A stretch of DNA of 64,000 nt from a virus (Duplodnaviria > Caudoviricetes). Made by a program: the position numbers and the translations under genes. Of this stretch, positions 4,944-33,136 are shown in pieces. Every line of letters begins with the position of its first letter. Within the stretch, counting starts at the first letter, position 1. The stretch covers positions 11,747-75,746 of IMG/VR virus record IMGVR_UViG_3300020044_010179; one strand, given 5' to 3'. Under the pieces are notes generated by a model. That model was not told the origin of the DNA, did no database searches, and saw only the letters and a program-made list of their open reading frames with translations.

Positions 4944-5258
4944 ATGGTAACAGAAATTAGTGTATTTGATAGTGAGGAATTTGAGGAATTGATTTCACAA
5001 CGTGATTTGAGAATATCAAAGGCACTTGTAGAAACTATCTTAAAGAACTTAAAAGGTAGAAAAAGACACCTACACGCCCTTACAGTATTGGTAGAGCAAG
5101 ATCAAACAATATATGATATAACAGTGGATAGAAATGATTTTATCACCACTTTAGAACAGAACCTTCCAGTATATGAAAAAAATGAACTGTATGAAGGATG
5201 TGCTGAAATAGTTACTGCTGTAAAATTTTTAAAAGGCAAGGATATTAAAAAGAAATAA
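4944..5258 (+). CDS. Hypothetical protein with C-terminal UVR-like motif
   Basis: ELYEGCAEI resembles the UVR coiled-coil motif. Confidence 0.5.
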   Translation: MVTEISVFDSEEFEELISQRDLRISKALVETILKNLKGRKRHLHALTVLVEQDQTIYDITVDRNDFITTLEQNLPVYEKNELYEGCAEIVTAVKFLKGKDIKKK

Positions 5259-5261
5259 AAG

Positions 5262-5295
5262 GGAATTGGATTTACAAAAGAATTTTTGTATATTT
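5262..5295 (+). promoter_or_regulatory. Promoter GGAA-TTGG-N19-TATATTT
   Basis: Canonical Bacteroidota -33/-7 spacing, with the same upstream GGAA seen in the early cassette promoters. Confidence 0.65.
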
Positions 5296-5312
5296 CATCT
5301 AAAAGAAAGGTT

Positions 5313-5756
5313 ATGTTAAGTGAGTTAACGTTAGAATATGAAGATGGAACAAGGGTAGTAAAAGTGGTACCAAAAAGTGAATCCACAATTTACCCCCAAA
5401 GAGACAATATTAAACATTGCACTCATAGATCTTTCAAATACGAGGTATCAAAACACCCTTATTTATGTGTTGCTATTGTAAAAATGGGAGAGGAATATAG
5501 AATTATGCCTGAAGGTATTAATTGTATTCCTGAAACTGAATTAAGTGATGTTTTGGTAATAGATAATTTACCTAAAGTTGTTGAAAAGCCTAAACAGGAA
5601 AATAAATGGATGTTTGAATCCTCAAGTGGAGATGGCTTTTATCAAGTAAGAGAGAATATGGGTAAATTAAAATGTAGTTGTCCTGGATCGTGGAGAGCAT
5701 TTGATAAAAGATGTAAACATATTAAAGAAGTAGAAAAAGAGTTAAATATAAAATAA
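5313..5756 (+). CDS. SWIM zinc-finger protein
   Basis: FYQV...CSCPG...RCKHI (CxC...CxH). ATG 5313 follows the promoter. Confidence 0.7.
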   Translation: MLSELTLEYEDGTRVVKVVPKSESTIYPQRDNIKHCTHRSFKYEVSKHPYLCVAIVKMGEEYRIMPEGINCIPETELSDVLVIDNLPKVVEKPKQENKWMFESSSGDGFYQVRENMGKLKCSCPGSWRAFDKRCKHIKEVEKELNIK

Positions 5757-5858
5757 AAATATGAGTAAAAATTCAGCAAAACAAAACACAGAGCAGTTCC
5801 AAAGTTGGTTAAGTTGGTTAAACTATATCACTAGAAAACAAGCTAAAAAGTAAATTTT

Positions 5859-5930
5859 GGTCCTATCGACTATCGGTTAGGTCGTCAGGTTTTCATCCTG
5901 GAAAGCGGGGTTCGATTCCCCGTAGGACTA
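5859..5930 (+). tRNA. trnE: tRNA-Glu (TTC)
   Basis: Acceptor GGTCCTA/TAGGACT, anticodon arm CAGG-TTTTCAT-CCTG, T-loop GGTTCGATTCC; no encoded CCA. Confidence 0.92.
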
Positions 5931-6016
5931 CAACAGCCTGTACCCTTGAGAAACTCGTATTTAAAGATAAGCAGGTTGGCTTCGAAATAAAGGGGTATTA
6001 GAATAAGAAGCAATAT

Positions 6017-6120
6017 AGTCAGGTGGCGGAATGGTAGACGCTAAAATAATGGGTAAACAGCGTGCCATTGGGGTAGAACCAAGAAAGTTACGCATACAGG
6101 TTCGAATCCTGTCCTGACCA
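6017..6120 (+). ncRNA. tRNA-like element lacking a canonical anticodon arm
   Basis: AGTCAGG/CCTGACC acceptor, Leu-type D arm GCG-GAATGGTAGA-CGC, perfect T arm ACAGG-TTCGAAT-CCTGT; a 54 nt insert replaces the anticodon and variable arms. Confidence 0.7.
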
Positions 6121-6194
6121 CAAAAAAACGTTGGTGGAAACACTAAAGAGCATAATGATATCAGCTCCAGCAGGTTAAGCGTGCCCTGCAATAT

Positions 6195-6264
6195 AGTCAG
6201 ATGGCGTGTTGGCATACGCACCCGATCATAAGGGAGATAATGGGTTCGATTCCTAATCTGACTA
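6195..6264 (+). tRNA. Degenerate tRNA-like element, CAT in anticodon loop (pseudo-tRNA-Met/Ile2)
   Basis: AGTCAGA/TCTGACT acceptor, GCGT/ACGC D stem, weak CCC/GGG stem around GATCATAA, imperfect T stem with GGTTCGATTCC. Confidence 0.5.
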
Positions 6265-6323
6265 CGCAAAAAACATTGAACTGAGTTTCCTTGCCGCAAG
6301 GTGGGTTTTACAAGTTCAACTAT

Positions 6324-6397
6324 GCGTCTGTAGCTCCAATTGGTAGAGCATCGGATTCCAAATCCGAGTGTTAGTGGTTCAAATCCATTCAGGCGTG
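6324..6397 (+). tRNA. trnW: tRNA-Trp (CCA)
   Basis: GCGTCTG/CAGGCGT acceptor, GCTC/GAGC D stem, TCGGA-TTCCAAA-TCCGA anticodon arm, GGTTCAAATCC. Confidence 0.92.
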
Positions 6398-6437
6398 CAA
6401 GTGCAAGAGTTCTTTGACATATAAAAATTTAAAAAAC

Positions 6438-6821
6438 ATGATAGAAATCACATCATATGTTTTAGGTATGCTTACGATTACAGCAGTATTATTATTGATT
6501 GCTTTAGTTGTAGGTATGGTTAAGATAAGCAAATTAGAAAAAAAAATAAGTGAACATCAAAAACAATTCGATATTGTATATGAAAATATGAGCCGCAGTG
6601 AAGAATATCTTCGTCGATTGCTTGAAGATACTCATCGCGATATCAATATGGTTGAAAAAACAATAATGAATCAAGTTCAACAAATTGATCAAGAACATCA
6701 CAAAATAGAAGATGAAATTCATCGAGAAATTGATCAAACAAAATCCTATATTGATTCTCGAATCGATAAGGTAGTATTACAAGGTTCTCTTGTGGGATCA
6801 AAAGAATTAATTAAAGGATAA
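6438..6821 (+). CDS. Membrane-anchored coiled-coil protein
   Basis: N-terminal hydrophobic helix (VLGMLTITAVLLLIALVVGM) followed by a charged heptad region. Confidence 0.6.
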   Translation: MIEITSYVLGMLTITAVLLLIALVVGMVKISKLEKKISEHQKQFDIVYENMSRSEEYLRRLLEDTHRDINMVEKTIMNQVQQIDQEHHKIEDEIHREIDQTKSYIDSRIDKVVLQGSLVGSKELIKG

Positions 6822-6851
6822 ACTAACCGTTAAAAACTCTTGTACTTTTAT

Positions 6852-6880
6852 TTGGCTTTTAAAATTTTTTTTCGTATATT
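6852..6880 (+). promoter_or_regulatory. Promoter TTGG-N19-TATATT
   Basis: TTGG 6852-6855; CGTATATT 6873-6880; upstream of ORF 6904. Confidence 0.65.
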
Positions 6881-6903
6881 CCATTATAAAAAAGGAAAAA
6901 CCA

Positions 6904-7614
6904 ATGAAAATTACATTAATCTCTGATACACATTCAAAGTATAAGCAATTGGATGGAGATCTACCTGGAGGCGAGATATTGATCCATGCCGGTGATTTCA
7001 TGAACTCAGGTTATGTTAAAACAGAGGCAACTGAATTTTTTGATTGGTTTGATGCAATAGACAATTACGATACAAAAGTACTTATTGCAGGCAATCATGA
7101 CCGAATCATGGAAAATGATCCTGAATGGGCTCAAGGTATCTTAACTGGATATAAAACAATTGAATATTTACAAGATGAAGATTTAACACTATACTATGAC
7201 GGACACAATGGAGATTTTCCAGAAGACAATGTTCACATATATGGTTCACCTTGGCAACCTGCATTTTACAATTGGGCTTTCAATTTACCACGAAATAGTG
7301 AGGAAATGAAAGCAAAGTGGGATGCTATCCCAACTAACACAGATATCTTAATTACACATGGGCCTCCATTTGGCTACCAAGATATACCAGGTGGACAGAG
7401 CATACGAGTTGGATGTGAAATGTTACGTTATCGAGTAGATGAACTCAAACCAAAAATTCATGTGTTTGGTCATATACATGGAGCAAATGGATATTACTTT
7501 AATGGACATACACATTTCTTTAATGCTTCTGTTTTAAACGAGCGATACAATTATACAAATAAACCATTTACTTTTGAATGGAATCAAGCAACAAATGAAA
7601 TAAAATGGCTATGA
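6904..7614 (+). CDS. Calcineurin-like metallophosphoesterase
   Basis: ISDTH, HAGD, IAGNHD, THGPP and FGHIH motifs. Confidence 0.9.
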   Translation: MKITLISDTHSKYKQLDGDLPGGEILIHAGDFMNSGYVKTEATEFFDWFDAIDNYDTKVLIAGNHDRIMENDPEWAQGILTGYKTIEYLQDEDLTLYYDGHNGDFPEDNVHIYGSPWQPAFYNWAFNLPRNSEEMKAKWDAIPTNTDILITHGPPFGYQDIPGGQSIRVGCEMLRYRVDELKPKIHVFGHIHGANGYYFNGHTHFFNASVLNERYNYTNKPFTFEWNQATNEIKWL

Positions 7615-7988
7615 AAATAAATCAAGATAAAGTACCATTAACATTAGATACTAGTGGTAATCTACACATGGATCAACTAGAAGATTTAGCAGAGCTACTA
7701 ACCCAAGGTAAACCTAATTGGAAGCTCGTTAGAGAAGGAGATGGATTAACCAAACATTCAGTAGACATATGTTGGATTGAGTGGAATGAAGACGGTACCT
7801 TTAAAGAAAAGCACGATACATTTGCGATTGGTCGTTCATTACTTATGTCACCATTTAATCAATTTTTTACATGGCAAACAACTCCAATAACAAAGATTAT
7901 TACTAGACGGCCGACTGCTGATATATTTTATGTTAAATTTGAAACAGAAAATAGTGTTTATAGATTAATTAAACTAAAAAATAATTAG
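7605..7988 (+). CDS. Hypothetical protein
   Basis: 127 aa ORF overlapping the upstream stop. Confidence 0.6.
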   Translation: MAMKINQDKVPLTLDTSGNLHMDQLEDLAELLTQGKPNWKLVREGDGLTKHSVDICWIEWNEDGTFKEKHDTFAIGRSLLMSPFNQFFTWQTTPITKIITRRPTADIFYVKFETENSVYRLIKLKNN

Positions 7989-7993
7989 AAAAT

Positions 7994-8233
7994 ATGGGAA
8001 AAATAATATTGGAGTTTGACTCTATTGAAGAACAAGATGATGCAAGAATGGCATTAGATGGTATTAAATGGAAAGTAGCTATGTGGGAATTAGACCAATT
8101 ACTTCGAAGTGTAACAAAATATGGTACTTTTGATGGTAGAGAAGCTACAGCAGCAGAACAAGACATGGCTTTTAAAGTAAGAGACTCTATCAGAGATATA
8201 TTAAATGAATCCAATTTAAACTTAGATGATTAA
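7994..8233 (+). CDS. Hypothetical protein
   Basis: 79 aa ORF in operon. Confidence 0.6.
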   Translation: MGKIILEFDSIEEQDDARMALDGIKWKVAMWELDQLLRSVTKYGTFDGREATAAEQDMAFKVRDSIRDILNESNLNLDD

Positions 8234-8239
8234 ATAGTT

Positions 8240-8446
8240 ATGAACAAATGGTATAATTATGGGAAGTGGAGACATCCTGAAAAACGTAAAGAACTAATGA
8301 AAAATATGAATAAAGAACAAGCAAAAGACGAGTTAATCAAAGTATTGTACTCTCAAGTAGTAGATCTAACCATGATGTCCAAAATTGAATTGGGAGATGA
8401 TGTGATAGCAGAAATTAAACGACTAAACGAGATTATCAATGGATAA
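8240..8446 (+). CDS. Hypothetical protein
   Basis: 68 aa ORF overlapping the thyA start. Confidence 0.55.
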   Translation: MNKWYNYGKWRHPEKRKELMKNMNKEQAKDELIKVLYSQVVDLTMMSKIELGDDVIAEIKRLNEIING

Positions 8447-9497
8447 CCTAGATAAACAATATATAGCTTTACTCCAAGATATATTAGATTACGGAGTTGA
8501 AAAACAAGACCGAACAGGTACAGGAACTAAAAGTATTTTTGGTTATACCATTCGTCATAATATGAAAGATGGTTTTCCATTGCTTACAACTAAGAAGATG
8601 CCATTCAGACTTATCGCAACAGAATTACTATGGTTCCTTCGTGGTGATACAAACATTAAGTTCCTGGTTGACAATAATTGTCATATTTGGGATGGTGATG
8701 CTTATAAGAATTATAAATTAAAACATAATTTTCAAATTAACCAAGGTATTGAGATTTTATCACAAGAAGAATTCATCAACAAAATCAAAACAGATGATGA
8801 GTTTGCTAAGAAGTGGGGTGAATTAGGACCAATTTATGGTAAGCAATGGAGAGATTGGGGAAGTAAAAAAAGATACGGTGACTATGAACCCCCAATGTAT
8901 GGTGGTATAGACCAAATCGCAAACCTAATCAACGACCTTAAAACAAACCCAGACTCAAGACGATTAATGGTTTCAGCTTGGAATGTAGGTGAATTGGACC
9001 AAATGGTTCTTCCACCTTGTCATTATGAATTTCAAGTTTATACAAGAGAGTTGAGTTTGGAAGAAAGATATGTAATGTATATTAAAAAATTAGACCATAC
9101 TATGGTTCCATTAGATATTAAAGTTCCTAATATTCATCAATATTTTACTGAACATAATATACCAACCAGAGCAATCTCTTTAATGTGGAATCAACGCTCA
9201 GCAGATACATTCTTAGGTTTACCATTCAATATCGCATCTTATGGACTACTACTTGAAATCATTGCTAAAGCAGTTAATATGGTACCCGATGAATTGATTG
9301 GTAATTTAGGTGATACACATTTGTATTTGGATCACATGGAACAAGCAAAAGAACAGATTGGTAGAACATCATTTGAATTACCAACAGTAAAATTATCTGA
9401 TAGAATTGTTAATGATATTTCGGAATATACTTTGGATGATATTATTTTAGAAAACTATCAAGCACACCCACATATTAAAGCACAATTATCAAATTAA
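8439..9497 (+). CDS. thyA: Thymidylate synthase
   Basis: DRTGTGT, FPLLTTKK, ELLWFLRG, LGPIYGKQWR, SRRLMVSAWN, LPPCH, QRSAD, GLPFNIASY, GDTHLY. Confidence 0.97.
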   Translation: MDNLDKQYIALLQDILDYGVEKQDRTGTGTKSIFGYTIRHNMKDGFPLLTTKKMPFRLIATELLWFLRGDTNIKFLVDNNCHIWDGDAYKNYKLKHNFQINQGIEILSQEEFINKIKTDDEFAKKWGELGPIYGKQWRDWGSKKRYGDYEPPMYGGIDQIANLINDLKTNPDSRRLMVSAWNVGELDQMVLPPCHYEFQVYTRELSLEERYVMYIKKLDHTMVPLDIKVPNIHQYFTEHNIPTRAISLMWNQRSADTFLGLPFNIASYGLLLEIIAKAVNMVPDELIGNLGDTHLYLDHMEQAKEQIGRTSFELPTVKLSDRIVNDISEYTLDDIILENYQAHPHIKAQLSN

Positions 9498-9608
9498 AAT
9501 TTATAAAAACAATGAAAAATATGAATAAAACAATATATCACTCAATCTTACATTTACTAGCGGGAATTACAATAGGTTATTTAATGTTTTCATAAAATTT
9601 AAAACAAT

Positions 9609-9839
9609 ATGTTTCAAGATACTAAAGGAAGACTACCTGAAAAGAAAATAGTAACAGTAGTTGTTTATAGAAAACCTACTGGAAAAAAATATTATCTATT
9701 AACAACGGAAGATTCAATAATTACTATATTGAATCCATCTAAACGTAAACCTCTTTTACCCGATAATTTTGAAATAATTGATATAGGAATGGGAGAATCG
9801 TACATTGAAAAATATAAAAAATTATACAAAATAAAATGA
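9609..9839 (+). CDS. Hypothetical protein
   Basis: 76 aa ORF. Confidence 0.55.
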   Translation: MFQDTKGRLPEKKIVTVVVYRKPTGKKYYLLTTEDSIITILNPSKRKPLLPDNFEIIDIGMGESYIEKYKKLYKIK

Positions 9840-10048
9840 AACCAGTATACATGCATGGAGAAAACGCCTACATTATTGTAGGGCAAAAACCTGTTAATCA
9901 TTTTGCTAAAACATTTGGAGACCACCCCAATATGGAGTATGTTCAAATGTATATGAATTGGTTAAAATGTGATCACGTGTTGAACAATCAAACACATTTT
10001 CTGTTTTGTGAAACAATAAAAGAAGCTGAATTAATAGAGGAAAATTAA
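9836..10048 (+). CDS. Hypothetical protein
   Basis: 70 aa ORF, ATGA overlap with the upstream gene. Confidence 0.55.
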   Translation: MKPVYMHGENAYIIVGQKPVNHFAKTFGDHPNMEYVQMYMNWLKCDHVLNNQTHFLFCETIKEAELIEEN

Positions 10049-10052
10049 AAAT

Positions 10053-10310
10053 ATGATATCACCACAATCAATCCGAAAAGGAGTTACAATTAAATTTGAC
10101 AATGTAGAAGTAGATAAAGCTACTATCATTAAAGCAAGTGAAGAATGGAAGGAAAGCCATGAAATTCTATTTAAAAAACTACTTAAACAAGGTGGTTCAT
10201 TTAAAATCAACGGTGTTTTAGTTGAAGTTAAACCTACAGACAAAATGTTAACATCTCGTGGTGAACAAGATGGTGGTGTGATTCAAGTTGATGCTTTTGC
10301 AAGATTTTAA
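10053..10310 (+). CDS. Hypothetical protein
   Basis: 85 aa ORF. Confidence 0.55.
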   Translation: MISPQSIRKGVTIKFDNVEVDKATIIKASEEWKESHEILFKKLLKQGGSFKINGVLVEVKPTDKMLTSRGEQDGGVIQVDAFARF

Positions 10311-10361
10311 GGACTAGATTTCTTAAAATATCTTTCGTATATTCCCATTAAATAAAAGGGA

Positions 10362-10571
10362 ATGAAATCAATATTAAATAAAAAATTAAGAGGCAAACCT
10401 GAACCGGAATTCATTATATTAAATGAACACGCTCAGGTTTACTGTGGCTTAAAAGGCGGCTATCCTCAATTTACCGATGACTTTAATGAAGCTAGATCCA
10501 TTGAAAGAGATGAACAGCTAAAAACGATTCAACGAGGGACTTTATTTAAATTAGAAAAAATACTTTTATAG
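10362..10571 (+). CDS. Early cassette hypothetical protein
   Basis: 69 aa ORF behind promoter repeat 10336. Confidence 0.6.
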   Translation: MKSILNKKLRGKPEPEFIILNEHAQVYCGLKGGYPQFTDDFNEARSIERDEQLKTIQRGTLFKLEKILL

Positions 10572-10633
10572 AGGGAATAAGAGATTTGAAAAGGAATTCG
10601 TATATTATAGTATAAATTTAAAAAAAGAAAGAT

Positions 10634-10807
10634 ATGTTTTGGTTTTTATTCGTGATCGTGTTATTATTTATTGGGTTTCTTTACAACGCTTTAGAATACC
10701 TACAGAAAATGTTTGAAGAGCTACGTGAACCAGATACTAGACATATAGGAGTTGGTAGATTGATTTCTGTTGTAATTGTATTCATAGCATTAGCAATGAT
10801 TTTTTAA
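10634..10807 (+). CDS. Small two-TM membrane protein (57 aa, not in ORF track)
   Basis: MFWFLFVIVLLFIGFLYNAL...LISVVIVFIALAMIF, behind promoter 10599 and A-rich leader. Confidence 0.6.
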   Translation: MFWFLFVIVLLFIGFLYNALEYLQKMFEELREPDTRHIGVGRLISVVIVFIALAMIF

Positions 10808-10873
10808 ATAAAGGAATAAGAGATATAAAATAGAATTCGTATATTGAAGTATAAATTAAAAAAAGAAAAAGTT

Positions 10874-11683
10874 ATGAAAATTCAAAAAAGAGAAATGAAA
10901 ACAGAGCGCAGAGGTCGTCCAAAAAAACAAGTTGAAATTGCAACATTCGATTCAACTCAAGTAAAATTACTTAGAGGTAATGATTTATCATTTAATGAAT
11001 CATTGTTTGTTCCTTTAAAAACGAATACTGAAATTGATTTAATTTTATCTACTGATGGTGGATTAATGCCAGGCATAAGCATAATGATTGCAGGAGGGCC
11101 AGGTTCAGGTAAATCAACGTTAGTGTTAGATATGTTATCTAAATTTACAATGCAAGGTTTAAAATGTTTGCTAGTACAAGGCGAAATGGATCAGATAGGT
11201 CATTACAAATACTGTCGAAGAATGCCTTCATTTGGTTGTATTCAAACATTGTTTTTAAAAGATCATATGGATGATATCAAAGAAACAGTTGAACATGTAT
11301 TTAATTTAGGATACGATGTAATAGGAATTGATTCAATTGCTGAAATTTTAGATATGTATAAAGATCAAAACGGAGGTACATCAAAACAAGCTGAATCTTG
11401 GTTTTTGAAGTTACAAGATGAAACGAAAAAAGGCGGTAACGCACAAGGATATTATACATCGTTCATCAACATCCAACAAATGACTAAATCAGATGAATTT
11501 GCAGGATCAAACCGATTAAAACACATGATGGAAGCATTTTGCAAAGTTGAACGTAGTAAAGATGGATTAGAGCGTTCATTGCACTTTGAAAAGAATCGTG
11601 ATTGCGACAAGGATTTTAAAGTGTTTTTTTCAATATATAAGGAAGGAGTACATTACTCGTTTGAACTAGAAAAAGAAGATTAA
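10874..11683 (+). CDS. RecA-superfamily (RadA/Sms-KaiC-like) ATPase with N-terminal AT-hook-like motif
   Basis: GGPGSGKST Walker A, IGIDS Walker B, AGSNRLKH and KNR C-terminal motifs as in RadA/Sms; RRGRPKK near the N-terminus. The start follows the AAAAGTTATG leader. Confidence 0.75.
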   Translation: MKIQKREMKTERRGRPKKQVEIATFDSTQVKLLRGNDLSFNESLFVPLKTNTEIDLILSTDGGLMPGISIMIAGGPGSGKSTLVLDMLSKFTMQGLKCLLVQGEMDQIGHYKYCRRMPSFGCIQTLFLKDHMDDIKETVEHVFNLGYDVIGIDSIAEILDMYKDQNGGTSKQAESWFLKLQDETKKGGNAQGYYTSFINIQQMTKSDEFAGSNRLKHMMEAFCKVERSKDGLERSLHFEKNRDCDKDFKVFFSIYKEGVHYSFELEKED

Positions 11684-11692
11684 TCAAGGAAT

Positions 11693-11712
11693 AGGGAGAG
11701 CAATCTCCCTTT
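11693..11712 (+). terminator. Terminator-like hairpin inside promoter spacer
   Basis: AGGGAGA-GCAA-TCTCCCT then TT, between GGAA and CGTATATT. Confidence 0.6.
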
Positions 11713-11743
11713 CGTATATTCAATTAAATAAAAAAGGAAAACT

Positions 11744-11863
11744 ATGAGCTGTTCAGGAGGAAAATCAACTAAAAAAGGCGGTTACAATAAAGCAGATAAT
11801 TTAAAAAAACCAACCGGATACACCGTTGATAAAAAAGGAAATGTTAAACCAAAATACAATTAA
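11744..11863 (+). CDS. Small basic Lys/Gly-rich peptide (39 aa, not in ORF track)
   Basis: MSCSGGKSTKKGGYNKADNLKKPTGYTVDKKGNVKPKYN directly behind promoter 11713. Confidence 0.5.
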   Translation: MSCSGGKSTKKGGYNKADNLKKPTGYTVDKKGNVKPKYN

Positions 11864-11873
11864 ATAAAAAACT

Positions 11874-12617
11874 ATGAAATACAAATTTATTCCAGTCGAT
11901 AACGACTTAAACAAAGCAATTGCATTTGCTAATTCGCTTGATCAAAACAATGTTATTAATGTTCAAAAAATTAAACAAAAGGAATTTTATATTCCAACAC
12001 TAGATGTAATTACAAAATTACAAGATAGTGGATGGCATTTAAAAGGCGTTGCTGAACAAAGAGGAAAAAATAGGAAAATATCAAATAACTTTATTCAACT
12101 ACAACATCCTGATTTTGCAATACAAAACAGTCAAGGTAAAAACGAAGCATTTACTTCAATTACACTATCAAATAGTTGTAACGGATCATCTCCACTACAA
12201 ATGGATTTAGGAACGTATCGTTTAGTATGCAGCAATGGAGCAATTGCGTTTGACGGATTTGAACAAAATAAAATTAAACATACTGAAGTTAATTATAGAG
12301 ATTTAGATCGTTTAGTTGCATCAATGAATGTTAGAGCAAGTAAATTATTAACTGATGTAAATGAAATGAAACATACAGGACTATCAATTGAAGATATGCG
12401 AAAATTAGCTCGCAACGCAGCTAGTTTAAGATATAGTAATTTAGATGAAATAAACATTGATGATTTATTTGCAGTTAGTAGAGTAGAGGATGAAAGTAAT
12501 GATTTATGGACTGTATTCAACAGAATTCAAGAAAACCTAACACATGATATTACAAACATGAAGGAAGATATCAAATTGAATCAACAACTGTTTGCATTAG
12601 CTGAAACATTTGCTTAA
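11874..12617 (+). CDS. DUF932-family protein (paralog 1)
   Basis: LSNSCNGSS...GTYRLVCSNG and LWTVFNRIQENL motifs. Confidence 0.75.
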   Translation: MKYKFIPVDNDLNKAIAFANSLDQNNVINVQKIKQKEFYIPTLDVITKLQDSGWHLKGVAEQRGKNRKISNNFIQLQHPDFAIQNSQGKNEAFTSITLSNSCNGSSPLQMDLGTYRLVCSNGAIAFDGFEQNKIKHTEVNYRDLDRLVASMNVRASKLLTDVNEMKHTGLSIEDMRKLARNAASLRYSNLDEINIDDLFAVSRVEDESNDLWTVFNRIQENLTHDITNMKEDIKLNQQLFALAETFA

Positions 12618-12671
12618 GGAATATTTTATGTAAAAAAGTTTTCGTATATTGAAGTATATAAAAAGAGAAAT

Positions 12672-12863
12672 ATGAATTTACATCCAGTTATACAAGAAAG
12701 CCAATTACCACAGGAAACTAAAGAATTCCTCCAATATCTATTGGAGGATGAATTTAACAGTGATTTTAATTTATTGCTAGAAAACATGATGGAACATGCT
12801 GTGGGTGATGAAGAATATGAATTAGCAGCAGAAATTAGAGATTATTTAAAAAAATACAAATGA
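12672..12863 (+). CDS. Small UVR (UvrB/UvrC motif) protein
   Basis: MEHAVGDEEYELAAEIRDYL is a textbook UVR motif. Confidence 0.7.
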   Translation: MNLHPVIQESQLPQETKEFLQYLLEDEFNSDFNLLLENMMEHAVGDEEYELAAEIRDYLKKYK

Positions 12864-13123
12864 CAGAAAAAGAAATACAATTACTCGGTTTTAAACGAGA
12901 AGATATGAATGATGGAGATTATTCTGGATATTACTATGCCTATAGAATAGCAAATGGATTTGAATTCCTATCAAATGCAAACGATGAAATAGGAGAAGGT
13001 GAGGAATGGTTTGTTGAATTTTTTAATTCAGACCCACAGATCCGTTTCGATGAATTTGGTGAAGTGCAAACATTGATTAATTTGATTGAAAAAAAAGTAG
13101 TAAAAAGGGAAGTGAAGGTATAA
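12860..13123 (+). CDS. Early hypothetical protein
   Basis: 87 aa ORF. Confidence 0.6.
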   Translation: MTEKEIQLLGFKREDMNDGDYSGYYYAYRIANGFEFLSNANDEIGEGEEWFVEFFNSDPQIRFDEFGEVQTLINLIEKKVVKREVKV

Positions 13124-13168
13124 AATAAATTTCGTATATTAAAGTAAATAAAAGAAAAAATAAAAGTT

Positions 13169-13504
13169 ATGGCTAAGAAAGAGAAAAATGTGATTGAAAG
13201 AAAGTTTATGAATATCAAAACGAAGTTTAAATCGGGTGATTTTGATATAGTGGAAATGGATGGTTTAACGTGTGATTTAATCGCTCATTTAGCCCAACTA
13301 ACATTAAACGGAGTAACTGAAGTTGAAGGTGTTCCAATTGATCTATACAAAGATAGAACTTGGTGGATTGTAGAAAACATTGGACTATTGCCTGAATATA
13401 GAGGACCTAAAGATGAAGAAGAAGAGGGTGAAATTGTAGATGATTACTACTCAAATGACGATGAAATTGAAGTAGAAATAGACGACAGCAAATTTTACCG
13501 GTAA
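13169..13504 (+). CDS. Early hypothetical protein with acidic C-tail
   Basis: 111 aa ORF behind promoter 13133 and AAAGTTATG leader. Confidence 0.65.
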   Translation: MAKKEKNVIERKFMNIKTKFKSGDFDIVEMDGLTCDLIAHLAQLTLNGVTEVEGVPIDLYKDRTWWIVENIGLLPEYRGPKDEEEEGEIVDDYYSNDDEIEVEIDDSKFYR

Positions 13505-13613
13505 ATTAATTTTAAAAGTAATGTACAGGAAATTAGGAGATTTAAAAAAGTTTTCGTATATTATAGTATAAGAAAAAGGATAAATAAGTTATAAATTAAA
13601 AAAAGAAAAAGTT

Positions 13614-14426
13614 ATGTTAGATTTAAGCAATCAAGAGTTTTTAAGTACAGAAGAAATTAAGCAACGCGCTTCATCAATCTTCTCAACAACAGCAGCACCT
13701 ACGGTGTCCGACAAGTTCACGCACATTCCAACGTTTAAAGTAATTGAGGATATGGCAAAATTAGGTTGGGATGTAGTAGATGCTAAACAAGTTAAAGCAC
13801 GTAAAGAGGAAACACGTGGTTTCCAAAAACACCTAGTAGTATTTCGTAACAACGATGTAGTAATTAATGGAGCAGACGGAGATACAGTTTTTCCACAAAT
13901 CCTATTAACAAATTCCAACGATGGAAAAAATGCATTTACATTCACAGCAGGTTTGTTTCGAATGGTATGTGAAAATGGTTTAGTTATTTCAACTGAGCAA
14001 TTCAATGATGTTAAAATGCGTCACATGGGATACACGTTTGAGGAATTGCAAGGTCAAATCAAAGAGATGGTTGAATTGTTACCATTAACTGTTGAATCAA
14101 TGAATAAAATGAAAGCAATTGAATTGAACGAAGATCAAACCAAAGCATTAGCTAAAAAAGCATTATCAACACGTTTCACAGAAGAGCAAGTTGAAGCATT
14201 TAAAATTGATATTGACAAATTACTAGAGCCAACACGACCTGAGGATAAAGGAAACGATTTATGGTCAGTGTTTAACGTAATACAAGAAAAAATATTAGAT
14301 GGTGATTTCACATACATAACAGGTGCTAAATCAAGAAAAGCACGTAAAGTGAAAAATTTCAAACAAGATATGGAAATTAACCAAAAATTATTTGCAATGG
14401 CCGCTGAATATACAGTTGCGGCCTAA
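13614..14426 (+). CDS. DUF932-family protein (paralog 2)
   Basis: LLTNSNDGK...AGLFRMVCENG, RPEDKGNDLWSVFNVIQEK. Confidence 0.8.
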   Translation: MLDLSNQEFLSTEEIKQRASSIFSTTAAPTVSDKFTHIPTFKVIEDMAKLGWDVVDAKQVKARKEETRGFQKHLVVFRNNDVVINGADGDTVFPQILLTNSNDGKNAFTFTAGLFRMVCENGLVISTEQFNDVKMRHMGYTFEELQGQIKEMVELLPLTVESMNKMKAIELNEDQTKALAKKALSTRFTEEQVEAFKIDIDKLLEPTRPEDKGNDLWSVFNVIQEKILDGDFTYITGAKSRKARKVKNFKQDMEINQKLFAMAAEYTVAA

Positions 14427-14428
14427 GC

Positions 14429-14517
14429 AACACAAAAGTAGATGACCATGAATATGAAACCAAATAAACTAAAAGCGCCCACAGTGGTACATGGATCAGG
14501 CGCTTTATCTACTTGTT
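14429..14517 (+). ncRNA. Candidate pseudoknotted structured RNA abutting a tRNA-like element
   Basis: AAGTAGAT/ATCTACTT, AAAGCGCC/GGCGCTTT and crossing CCATG/CATGG helices in an intergenic region. Confidence 0.5.
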
Positions 14518-14590
14518 AGTCAGGTGTACTTAAATGGAAAAGTACCTAACGCTTAATTAGGAAATGCAGGTTCGATTCCTGTCCTGACTA
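14518..14590 (+). tRNA. Atypical tRNA-like element, loop CGCTTAA (CTT, Lys-like; G at position 33)
   Basis: AGTCAGG/CCTGACT acceptor, TACT/AGTA D stem, CCTAA/TTAGG anticodon stem, GCAGG-TTCGATT-CCTGT T arm. Confidence 0.65.
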
Positions 14591-14619
14591 CAAAACTGCT
14601 TCATAACCAGTTTTCTTTC

Positions 14620-14649
14620 CCCACCTGATGCGGGTTCGGTGGGTTTTTT
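14620..14649 (+). terminator. Intrinsic terminator
   Basis: CCCACC...GGTGGG followed by TTTTTT. Confidence 0.7.
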
Positions 14650-14706
14650 AAATAAAGGAATAGTTGAAGCAAAAGAAATTTCGTATATTATAGTATAAAA
14701 AGGAAA

Positions 14707-14895
14707 ATGAAAGAAAATAAAAGTTTAGAATTAGGTACAATTTTATTTTTAATATTTTTAGTATTAAAATTAACAAACAACATTAGTTGGTCGTGGTGGT
14801 GGGTAACAGCCCCATTATGGATTCCAATTGCATCCATTATTTTAATAGTGGGGATTGCAGTATTAATTGGATTATTTTTTTACTTAAAAAAATGA
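14707..14895 (+). CDS. Small multi-TM membrane protein
   Basis: Hydrophobic 62 aa ORF with the LKLTNNISWSWWWVTAPLWIP motif common in phage small membrane proteins. Confidence 0.7.
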   Translation: MKENKSLELGTILFLIFLVLKLTNNISWSWWWVTAPLWIPIASIILIVGIAVLIGLFFYLKK

Positions 14896-15137
14896 ATAAC
14901 GTAACACCGAGAGTCAGAATACACAAAAATATCAATGAACTAATTGGACGTATAGCAAATAGTAATTGCTTTTCTACAATGAGAGGAAAATTCATTTATA
15001 TTAAAGACGATCGATGTTATTTTGAAATGGTAGCAAACGATGTTTACCCAAAATATAATTATTGTGCTGGTAAAATAGAGTATTTACTTGATCACATGGT
15101 AGCAACAATGAAATTTGAAGAAGATGAAAGCATTTAA
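14892..15137 (+). CDS. Early hypothetical protein
   Basis: ATG 14892 overlaps the upstream TGA; in frame with track ORF 14787. Confidence 0.55.
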   Translation: MNNVTPRVRIHKNINELIGRIANSNCFSTMRGKFIYIKDDRCYFEMVANDVYPKYNYCAGKIEYLLDHMVATMKFEEDESI

Positions 15138-15399
15138 CGCAGAAAATGATAAAGAATTTGGAATAGAAAGATTTTCAATGAAATTTGGCAATGGAAATGC
15201 TATTTCTGTTGTATTTGGAAAAGGAACATATTCCGATCAAGGAGAGACAACAGCTGAAGTAGCAGCTTGGAATAGTAAGGGTGATTGGATGTTATTTCAA
15301 AATGAAAAATGGATTACACTAGAGCAAGACCACGACGTTATGCCCAGATGCACACCTGGGGAAGTTGCTGAAATGATATTTACTTTAAGTAAACTTTAG
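15124..15399 (+). CDS. Early hypothetical protein
   Basis: FSMKFGNGNAISVVFG...AEVAAW beta-rich ORF. Confidence 0.6.
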   Translation: MKAFNAENDKEFGIERFSMKFGNGNAISVVFGKGTYSDQGETTAEVAAWNSKGDWMLFQNEKWITLEQDHDVMPRCTPGEVAEMIFTLSKL

Positions 15400-15462
15400 T
15401 GAAGGACAAGGATTATTGAAAGAGAATTCGTATATTATAGTATAAATAAAAAAATAAAGGTT

Positions 15463-16224
15463 ATGAAAGACACAGAAAATTTTAAAGATCCGAATCAATT
15501 GGATCTATTTGCAGGCATTGTATTAACTGTAGAACAGCAAAGTCAAGTTAATCGCAATATTGATAACATAAACCAAAGTACTAATTGGCAAAGAAATAAA
15601 GTACAACAAATTGAACAGTTGCTTGTTGAAGCAGGTTTTAAAAAGGGAATTGATTTCGAAAACACATTCAAATCATCCCTAGAAACAAGAAATATTAAAA
15701 TAGGATACGGAAGTGGACAATTTGAAACAGAGGTTACAGCTGAATTTCATTCAGGTGATGTTGTGTTGAAAGGTTTAAGATTTTTTGATGGTAAATTAAC
15801 AAATACTACATTTAATATTGATATTGATAACGATAAAGTTCAATGCTATACAGTTCAAGGTCACTCTCGTTATATTAAACCTAAAACATTACTTGAAAAA
15901 CTTAATCAACACAATGAATGTCAAAAAGATCGTTTAAAAGATTTTCAAAATAAAACAAATTTAAAACAAATTATAGTTGAAAAATATACCAAACTATACC
16001 CAAATGCTACAATAACAGTTAAAAGTGATTGGACAAAATATAGCGGCTCGTTTGAAGTTATTGAAGTTAAATTTGAATCAGGAAGTTACATTCAGTTTAG
16101 ATTAGATACATACAACAATAAAGAATATATATACAAGAAACACGATGCTGAGTTTGATAATTTAAATTCAGAGGAATTGTTAAATAGATTTTCAAAACAA
16201 ATAAAAAAGGAAGCTCTCAATTAA
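15463..16224 (+). CDS. Early hypothetical protein
   Basis: 253 aa ORF behind promoter 15429. Confidence 0.7.
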   Translation: MKDTENFKDPNQLDLFAGIVLTVEQQSQVNRNIDNINQSTNWQRNKVQQIEQLLVEAGFKKGIDFENTFKSSLETRNIKIGYGSGQFETEVTAEFHSGDVVLKGLRFFDGKLTNTTFNIDIDNDKVQCYTVQGHSRYIKPKTLLEKLNQHNECQKDRLKDFQNKTNLKQIIVEKYTKLYPNATITVKSDWTKYSGSFEVIEVKFESGSYIQFRLDTYNNKEYIYKKHDAEFDNLNSEELLNRFSKQIKKEALN

Positions 16225-32732: not shown

Positions 32733-33136
32733 TGGCATTTAATCCACAATTAATAAATCCAATTGATTTAAATCCAAATCTTGCAGTTGGAGTAAATATT
32801 CCATTTAGTGGACCTTCTGTTTTTACCCCAAATTATTTAACTTCTCAAGCTATAAAAAACAATTTAATCAACTATTTTTTAACTAATCCTGGAGAAAGAC
32901 CATTAAATCCTACTTTTGGAGGAGGTTTAAGAGCCTTTATTTTCCAACAAATTTCAGAAAATTCGCTAGATGGATTAAAAGAAAATGTAAGTTTAAAATT
33001 AGAAACATATTTCCCAAATGTTATAATTAACTCATTAGATGTACTTAAAAGAGATGATGAAAATTCAGTAGTAGTTCAATTGAAATATTCTATTGCTAAT
33101 TCTAATATCAATGATAACTTAACTTTTCAATTTTAA
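32732..33136 (+). CDS. Baseplate wedge protein, gp25-like
   Basis: IKNNLINYFLTNPGERPLNPTFGGGLR motif. Confidence 0.88.
   Translation: MAFNPQLINPIDLNPNLAVGVNIPFSGPSVFTPNYLTSQAIKNNLINYFLTNPGERPLNPTFGGGLRAFIFQQISENSLDGLKENVSLKLETYFPNVIINSLDVLKRDDENSVVVQLKYSIANSNINDNLTFQF

Follow-up and report, generated by a model that had tools for sequence, protein, structure and literature searches.

Three tRNA-like genes, designated el1, el2 and el3, are encoded in a 64-kb stretch (64,000 nt, hereafter the window) of the IMG/VR viral contig IMGVR_UViG_3300020044_010179, a record of 75.7 kb with a completeness of ~47%. The analysis of these genes and of their relatives indicates, with a probability that we put at roughly 0.55, that they are functional members of one tRNA-chassis family, acting as tRNA-processed carriers of class-specific modules. 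Judged from their predicted folds, el1 and el2 are unable to decode, and el3 forms a cloverleaf in which G33 is fixed. A preliminary description of the window, made from its sequence alone, had proposed that three RNAs use a common acceptor stem, and all of them were found with the positions and sequences that it gave:

6017..6120, plus strand: el1, a 104-nt chassis RNA with a conserved core class (Rfam tRNA score of 33.4 bits)
6195..6264, plus strand: el2, a 70-nt chassis RNA with a short core (Rfam tRNA score of 30.6 bits; no ARAGORN call)
14518..14590, plus strand: el3, a 73-nt cloverleaf (Rfam tRNA score of 34.4 bits; called Lys(ctt) by ARAGORN)

The Common Chassis of el1, el2 and el3

The acceptor AGUCAG(G/A)/(C/U)CUGAC(C/U)-A and a nearly identical T arm are common to the three RNAs. 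In each of them, the 7-bp acceptor stem is accompanied by a discriminator, and the T arm carries a GUUCRANYC loop, with an A1.C72 mismatch in el1 and a T stem of four pairs in el2. In the DNA, the T-loop sequence GGTTCGA(A/T)TCC precedes the 3´ acceptor strand (C/T)CTGAC(C/T)A in all three elements. This 3´ module, GGTTCGAWTCCNNNYCTGACYA, has exactly three matches in the 64-kb window, found only at el1, el2 and el3, with none expected according to 100 shuffles. The near identity of the T arms of the first and third elements, already pointed out in the preliminary description, was confirmed, with both el1 and el3 matching the chassis AGUCAGG/CCUGACU and ACAGG-UUCGAAU-CCUGU almost exactly. The flank said to be shared by el1 and el2 is also present, as the leader GCAATAT. 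However, its last bases correspond to a family-wide leader consensus, A-W-A-T, so that the common leader is not just the product of a local duplication.

The Rfam tRNA model (RF00005, cut-off of 29 bits) accepts the three RNAs, el2 in a search of the window's own record, and these scores are carried by the chassis alone. Among the three, only el3 is called by ARAGORN on the window (Lys CUU). When known RNA families were searched with Rfam at E values up to 10 over positions 5000-15500, only tRNA and chance hits were obtained at el1-el3. A canonical anticodon arm, comprising a 5-bp stem, a 7-nt loop, U33 and a purine at position 37, is absent from el1, el2 and el3.

Conservation of the el1 Class

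The acceptor of el1, AGUCAGG/CCUGACC, contains the A1.C72 mismatch, a feature absent from the preliminary description, and is followed by the discriminator A73. Its D arm is of the tRNA-Leu type (GGCGGAAUGGUAGACGC). As had been suggested, el1 carries no anticodon: its core of 55 nt is made up of 18 unpaired nucleotides and an extended hairpin, with no anticodon arm, and the Rfam tRNA alignment places 45 inserted nucleotides where this arm would be.

A pattern restricted to the el1 core matched 40 viral contigs, with the core nearly always sitting in the same chassis; the class as a whole extends to 41 contigs. A different, fully compensated acceptor was found in two contigs of the class and a hairpin insertion in the D loop in five. 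Among 20 distinct sequences, the five proposed helices are paired in 99.3% of cells, and both-sided changes were detected at 10 pairs, a figure reached by none of 500 shuffles. Pairing decreased to 27-51% when the partner columns were shifted, and the same helices are recovered by RNAalifold. The flanks (60 nt on each side) show 30-31% identity between contigs, which is the random level, while the core outside the search pattern is 83% identical, compared with 84% for the T arm and acceptor. Within the class, the unpaired core nucleotides are conserved like the chassis.

One locus (L147:2354-2526) holds a 3´ remnant of an el1-class element, with the core, the T arm and the 3´ acceptor strand and with no 5´ acceptor strand or D arm. 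This is either a real pseudogene or a recombination scar.

Conservation of the el2 Class

The el2 RNA has the acceptor AGUCAGA/UCUGACU and, compared with the family chassis, it combines G7A with C66U and has a compensated T stem of 4 bp. Its D stem (4 bp) is class I-like, and its D loop has no A at position 14. The 20-nt core folds into a stem of 3 bp and an 8-nt loop containing CAU. The weak CAT loop noticed initially is present in the fold, but it does not hold as an anticodon. The el2 class comprises three lineages with different flanks, and in one of them, placed on the canonical chassis (the L150 group), CAU is replaced by CGU, which indicates that the CAU of el2 is not a conserved anticodon. 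The T stems of the window copy and of the canonical-chassis copy differ by one compensated pair and one G.U pair. Variation within the el2 class is restricted, like that of the el3 class, to loops and to substitutions that maintain pairing.

Conservation of the el3 Class and the Lys-tRNA Question

In el3, the same acceptor and T arm are combined with a class I-like D stem of 4 bp, instead of the Leu-type D arm, and with a 5-bp anticodon stem and a 7-nt loop, C-G-CUU-A-A, providing G33 and A37; the discriminator is A73. The CTT loop with G33 had been recognized from the start and proved to be a constant feature of the class. Besides the window, tRNA-shaped copies with unrelated flanks were found in nine contigs, the class comprising eight distinct sequences, and G33 is present in all of them under a pattern that fixed the anticodon arm and left position 33 free. 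The differences are limited to the D loop, the variable loop and position 59 of the T loop, together with a single compensated pair in the T stem and acceptor changes of the G.U type.

Such an arm could belong to a working tRNA-Lys(CUU), in which U33G would act as a shield from a host nuclease that cleaves tRNA-Lys within its anticodon loop. It has been proposed that phage tRNAs with changed anticodon loops escape tRNases (PMC10264068), and tRNA-Lys is a common target of these enzymes (PMC13056530). The complete cloverleaf of el3, with CUU, A37 and A73, agrees with this explanation, as does the retention of G33 in eight of eight distinct sequences despite their unrelated flanks. However, U33 is near-universal among decoding tRNAs, position 33 was the only one free to vary in an arm whose remainder was fixed by the search, and the chassis of el3 belongs to a mostly non-decoding family. 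Moreover, AAG codons are rare in the genes of this phage (89, versus 858 AAA codons), which speaks against ordinary decoding by el3. A shielded tRNA-Lys is thus a doubtful explanation, and one that concerns el3 alone.

The preliminary description had favoured decoys or resistant substitutes against host anticodon nucleases. As decoys, el1 and el2 fit poorly, since they have no anticodon loop to be recognized, and the idea keeps its interest for el3. A resistant substitute is likewise possible only for el3, with its Lys-CUU-like arm and invariant G33.

The AGUCAGG-Chassis Family

The three RNAs of the window belong to a large family. A 24-base pattern composed of the T arm and the 3´ acceptor strand matched viral contigs at least 120 in number, some of which contain as many as six copies. 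Among bacteria and archaea (185,579 species, one genome each), it was detected in just 24 contigs, all from metagenome-assembled genomes and mostly labelled as Bacteroidota. By using a relaxed pattern, 270 elements (235 unique) were collected from the fetched loci and grouped into ~184 core classes, 156 of them singletons. Up to seven different elements occur within a single fetched locus (at most 15 kb). Measured between the 5´ acceptor strand and the discriminator, the shortest element has 54 nt and the longest 196 nt, the median being 103.

The alignment of 44 class representatives showed that ~26 bases at each end can be aligned, while the middle is unalignable. The constant acceptor and elbow with a variable anticodon region, initially described in three RNAs, can thus be extended to the whole collection. 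The existence of ~184 unrelated cores, each kept in its own class, argues against a middle that arose simply by deletion of an anticodon arm. As a population, the cores fold better than their dinucleotide shuffles (mean z of -0.58, p 5e-11). The search for a shared core motif by k-mer enrichment yielded only left-over D-arm words and T-loop-like hairpins (10 of 149 cores).

Apart from its acceptor and T arm, the family chassis is characterized by a discriminator that is usually A and by a U at position 48 (79% of the members). Its 5´ block is the D arm of class II tRNA-Leu, as found in ordinary tRNA-Leu genes on the same contigs. This Leu-type D arm (GGCGGAAUUGGUAGACGC) is typical rather than defining, being present in el1 and missing in el2, el3 and some other members.

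Decoding is not the rule in the family. Of the first 208 elements, 41 are called by ARAGORN, with scattered anticodons, 15 of which begin with A. A 3-nt anticodon together with U33 and a purine at position 37 is found in 12 of these 41 called members, compared with 216 of the 232 ordinary tRNAs on the same contigs. A few members resemble true decoders, such as a Lys UUU and an Ile UAU.

No family member was found among 50,697 records of cultured phages when the RNA cluster of the window, el3 and a 32-nt 3´ module were used as BLAST queries. The Tenacibaculum phage pT24 has odd tRNAs, without the AGUCAGG chassis, and the Flavobacterium phage immuto has no family member. Neither a describing paper nor an Rfam family was found for the AGUCAGG-chassis family.

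Genomic Setting and Proposed Processing

Half of the elements lie no more than 300 nt from another tRNA or family gene, and this neighbour is encoded on the same strand in 102 of 102 cases. A U at position -1 is found in 80% of the members. C74 is present in 98% of them and is usually followed by A or T rather than by CA. Ordinary tRNAs of the same contigs have a comparable context, with U(-1) as in the family and C74 in 230 of 232 genes, few of them with CCA and most continuing with AA or TA. This 3´ flank of the ordinary tRNAs on the fetched loci, C74 without C75-A76, is in itself an unusual and uniform signature.

From the tRNA-type flanks and setting, we infer that ribonuclease P (RNase P), 3´ trimming enzymes and a CCA-adding enzyme would mature the family RNAs. 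Among the roles put forward in the preliminary description, a scaffold for processing by RNase P and RNase Z is best in line with the data, given that strand, spacing, U(-1) and C74 are as in real tRNAs. The 75.7-kb record, about 47% complete, yielded no CCA-adding enzyme, RNA ligase or RtcB.

According to the proposed mechanism, el1, el2 and el3 would be transcribed either together with the tRNA genes next to them or as the last part of an mRNA. The 5´ end of the chassis RNA would then be cleaved by RNase P, and the 3´ end would be trimmed and completed with CCA, as for the real tRNAs of the phage. The product would be a stable L-shaped RNA in which a class-specific module replaces the anticodon and variable region. 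Processing and stability would come from the chassis, which might also offer tRNA-binding proteins a handle, while the module would supply specificity for a partner, most likely in the phage-host contest.

Several observations weigh against a carrier function. The compensatory changes in the core helices could be selected only for the folding of the chassis. The el1 copy of the window is atypical, with its A1.C72 mismatch and with GUAAA where the other 19 distinct sequences have GUGGA, and it may be a weakened copy. A few members are nearly coreless (54-65 nt), a hint that the chassis may have a role by itself. The samples that define the chassis are biased by exact-match patterns, and the first ones forced an A at position 73. 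A metagenome scan for the minority variant with encoded CCA matched 88 contigs, all of genomic type; the listed CCA-ended matches lie in contigs of at least 1 kb, inside the fetched stretch, and none resembles a short processed RNA. There is no universal protein neighbour, with no cluster present in more than 19 of 145 loci. Antisense RNAs or captured spacers are not supported either: the cores, compared by BLAST with the 1.6 Mb of loci, match mostly other family members, and within the window the el1 core has no better complement than one of 11 nt, the chance level.

Alternative Explanations

It is conceivable, though unlikely, that only the chassis matters. The RNAs would then be decoys or sponges that absorb host factors reading the top half of tRNAs, and the cores would fill space and keep the RNA off the ribosome. 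The targets could be defence nucleases that cleave the tail or acceptor (Cas12a3 type), processing or modifying enzymes, or the leucyl-tRNA synthetase (LeuRS) or EF-Tu. Ba1Cas12a3, from a Bacteroidetes bacterium, reads this top half, binding the T arm, the acceptor stem and the CCA tail regardless of the anticodon, and its authors indicate that phages would need unknown counter-measures (PMC12851939). The likely hosts of the family, Bacteroidota, are compatible with such a target, the chassis is the conserved part of the family and near-coreless members exist. However, within a class the unpaired core nucleotides are as conserved as the chassis, and ~184 separately kept core classes are hard to explain as filler. 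Furthermore, one decoy per genome should suffice, yet up to seven elements are found in one locus.

A different possibility, which we consider rather improbable, is that the tRNA-like shapes are punctuation signals, cleaved by RNase P and the 3´ processing enzymes to divide polycistronic phage RNAs and define mRNA ends, with no further role for the released RNA. The t-elements of plant mitochondria, which are tRNA-like cleavage signals, serve as a model. The elements are intergenic, on the gene strand, with the same flank signature as tRNAs, and the length and sequence of the core are free across classes. In addition, el3 has a DUF932 gene on one side and a terminator-like hairpin on the other, and unrelated members come after three other DUF932 genes. 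Nevertheless, half of the elements are inside tRNA arrays, where ordinary tRNAs already supply cleavage sites. Within a class, the cores are under purifying selection, including their unpaired stretches, and deletion bias should shrink them, yet the median element still measures 103 nt.

To a similarly small extent, it can be considered that Leu-type members such as el1 are charged by the host LeuRS despite being anticodon-less, acting as leucine donors or as a sink for the enzyme. In E. coli, LeuRS requires A73, which is essential, the A15-U48 pair, G18G19 and the contacts between D and T loops, and a tRNA-Leu without anticodon arm and variable arm is still charged (review PMC9976931). The chassis keeps all these determinants, el1 has every one of them, and the D arm matches phage tRNA-Leu genes. 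However, A73 is not a fixed feature of the el1 class: in a sample unbiased at this position, A is present in just 15 of 20 distinct sequences, with G, C or U in the others, which places the discriminator among the most variable positions and speaks against obligatory leucine charging. Moreover, el2 and el3 have no Leu-type D arm, and the identity rules come from E. coli, from which the LeuRS of Bacteroidota may differ.

Finally, the decay of tRNA pseudogenes, the null model of the preliminary description, is very improbable and was rejected at class level, since the 1-72 mismatch and the two changes in an otherwise invariant core motif of the window el1, together with the weak T stem and arm of el2, are outweighed by the recurrence of all three classes on other contigs with conserved cores, unrelated flanks and pair-preserving substitutions.

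Comparison with Known RNAs

The closest designs are found in well-known coliphages. Phage T5 encodes RNA1 (NC_005859 30501-30644) and RNA2 (32959-33083), annotated as 'tRNA-like stable RNA with unknown functions'. Like el1 and el2, they lie within the tRNA region of the phage, and they combine a T arm and an acceptor-like stem with a replaced anticodon region. In RNA1, the D arm is of the Leu type (GCCGGAAUUGGUAGACGG) and ~80 nt occupy the site of the anticodon and variable arms. RNA2 has a T arm, GCAGG-UUCGAAU-CCUGU, nearly identical to the family one, and its core includes a T-loop-like hairpin, as several family cores do. However, the acceptor sequences of the T5 RNAs are unlike those of the family, and BLAST of el1, el2 and el3 against the 50,697 phage records gave nothing beyond generic T-arm or tRNA matches, with no similarity to the T5 RNAs. 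T5 infects E. coli and has a few fixed RNAs, whereas the chassis family is found in uncultured lake phages, probably of Bacteroidota, and carries ~184 or more core classes on one chassis.

In phage T4, the species 1 and 2 RNAs (rnaC 70908-71046 and rnaD 71053-71171, NC_000866) are small stable RNAs that end the tRNA cluster. rnaC finishes with a T arm, CCGGG-UUCGAAU-CCCGG, and an acceptor-like stem, and the T4 record gives no function. In contrast with the family, rnaC and rnaD have neither a Leu-type D arm nor a common chassis, and the fold of rnaD shows no T arm. The kind of RNA is therefore already known from T4 and T5; what is new is one conserved chassis with very many interchangeable cores, as well as the group of phages and hosts.

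Class II tRNA-Leu genes (RF00005) on the same contigs share with the family the D arm, U8, A14, A15, G18G19, U48, the T loop and the usual A73. The differences lie in the anticodon stem-loop, missing in el1 and el2, in the acceptor, which starts with A1-U72 (AGUCAGG) instead of GCC or GCG, and in the family cores, which are unrelated to the anticodon or variable arm of tRNA-Leu. The topology of transfer-messenger RNA (tmRNA) is also the same, with a tRNA-like acceptor and T-arm domain and a large insert replacing the anticodon arm. However, the family has a U-A pair at 3-70, not the G.U pair of alanine identity, and its cores are short and class-specific, with no conserved reading frame; ARAGORN made no tmRNA call in the window. 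The engineered 'tRNA scaffold' (PMC3753655) follows the same design: a cargo RNA substitutes for the anticodon region of a tRNA frame and is thereby processed and stabilized by the cell. This scaffold is man-made, while for the natural RNAs a carrier role is a proposal.

Other tRNA-like RNAs were also noticed. A second tRNA-ended family of 156-176 nt, with UGUCAGG-like acceptors, G73 and a conserved core with GGGTTGACCACAAAGCCGGCT, occurs on the same kind of phage contigs. In a third one, of ~153 nt, the acceptor GGCUCUA/UAGAGCU(A) is combined with a normal T arm and with a middle of great length. Their members are:

L012:587-742, minus strand: second family
L038:5302-5469, minus strand: second family
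L053:12256-12431, minus strand: second family
L095:836-992, not on the minus strand: second family
L150:4130-4282: third family
L152:2090-2242: third family
L173:1364-1516: third family
L017:3495-3616: third family

Anticodon-less RNAs that combine the Leu-type D arm with other acceptors were also found (L163:4030-4138, L040:6420-6518 and 7002-7103, L058:1916-2035, L069:7082-7190, L108:124-264, and L132:393-583 and 1448-1541), which indicates that the design is broader than the AGUCAGG lineage.

Among cultured phages, immuto has an 86-nt 'tRNA-Cys' (L285:747-832; vB_FspM_immuto_2-6A, NC_055915.1 20246-20331) with the acceptor AAUCGGU/ACCGAUU and a normal T arm. It is too long for a class I tRNA and resembles an uncalled 85-nt element in L083. 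This cultured phage probably has here a sister type of the tRNA-like RNAs that lack an anticodon. The jumbo phage pT24, a cultured phage of Flavobacteriaceae, carries two near-identical 'tRNA-Undet' genes with an oversized loop in the anticodon region (L196:2290-2368 and 2657-2735), near a tRNA-Sup gene.

Gene Context in the Window

With a G+C content of 30%, the window carries genes for a T4-type portal and a large terminase subunit. The tRNA-Glu and the DUF932 protein encoded in it both have their nearest relative in the Flavobacterium phage immuto and, on this basis, the host is probably a member of the Bacteroidota. The features surrounding the three RNAs are the following:

5859..5931, plus strand: ordinary tRNA-Glu(UUC), opening a four-gene RNA cluster (ARAGORN; Rfam, 54 bits)
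6289..6311, plus strand: terminator-like hairpin that lies between el2 and tRNA-Trp and has a T-rich tail (consensus scan)
6324..6398, plus strand: ordinary tRNA-Trp(CCA), closing the four-gene cluster (ARAGORN; Rfam, 58.4 bits)
6904-7614: calcineurin-like metallophosphoesterase gene, after the tRNA cluster
13614..14426, plus strand: DUF932 gene (Pfam PF06067, E 1.7e-29), ending 92 nt 5´ of el3
14620..14649, plus strand: hairpin CCCACC...GGUGGG followed by six T, read from the sequence, 30 nt 3´ of el3

el1 and el2 are therefore flanked by an ordinary tRNA-Glu on one side and an ordinary tRNA-Trp on the other. The hairpin sequence at 6289..6311 is kept 3´ of the el2 copies in the fetched loci L183-L185. 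The spacer between tRNA-Glu and el1 (window 5931-6016) holds CCCTTGAGAAAC plus paired segments, and may be a separate RNA element that travels with the AGUCAGG-chassis family.

The order of a tRNA cluster followed by a metallophosphoesterase gene is common to the window and phage immuto, and relatives of this gene are found near family elements in eight loci. In PHROG, the metallophosphoesterase weakly matches the phosphoesterase portion of an 'RNA ligase' family, a hint of a possible role in RNA end healing.

DUF932 is the commonest protein neighbour of the family, occurring, without exception on the same strand, in 19 of 145 loci. In four loci, including the window, it is encoded directly 5´ of an element, with three different cores among them, and the three genes outside the window have unrelated members 8-91 nt downstream. 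DUF932 is rare in cultured phages (27 of 50,697 records), a contrast with the family loci that is confounded by phage lineage. Its predicted fold was uninformative (best Foldseek E of 0.036; best VIA Z of 8.0 over 105 residues), and no functional literature was found for it. The window has two DUF932 paralogues, at 11874-12617 and 13614-14426, less than 2.5 kb apart.

The hairpin downstream of el3 is conserved in the fetched loci L182 and L007 and would probably mark the end of a transcript carrying the DUF932 gene and el3. It was not picked up by the consensus terminator scan, probably due to its loop of 12 nt, longer than the limit of 8 used in the scan.

Biological Significance of the Family

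With hundreds of natural variants of one design, the family makes comparative and biochemical questions accessible: which partner recognizes which part of the RNA, whether charging takes place, and whether the RNAs act against tRNA-directed immunity, which includes Bacteroidota systems reading the top half of tRNAs. There is also a practical side, because tRNA finders give part of the family arbitrary anticodons, which affects the tRNA counts of phages and the codon-usage studies based on them.

The family can be regarded as the natural counterpart of the engineered tRNA scaffold. A more far-reaching and tentative proposal is that Bacteroidota phages use a natural modular scaffold of this type to express, process and stabilize a large, fast-turning-over library of effector RNAs on one chassis. 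The modules would be aptamer-like binders or sponges directed against host defence or physiology, swapped between phages by means of the conserved ends. If true, this would represent a previously unrecognised form of phage RNA weaponry, and it might explain the species 1 and 2 RNAs of T4 and RNA1 and RNA2 of T5.

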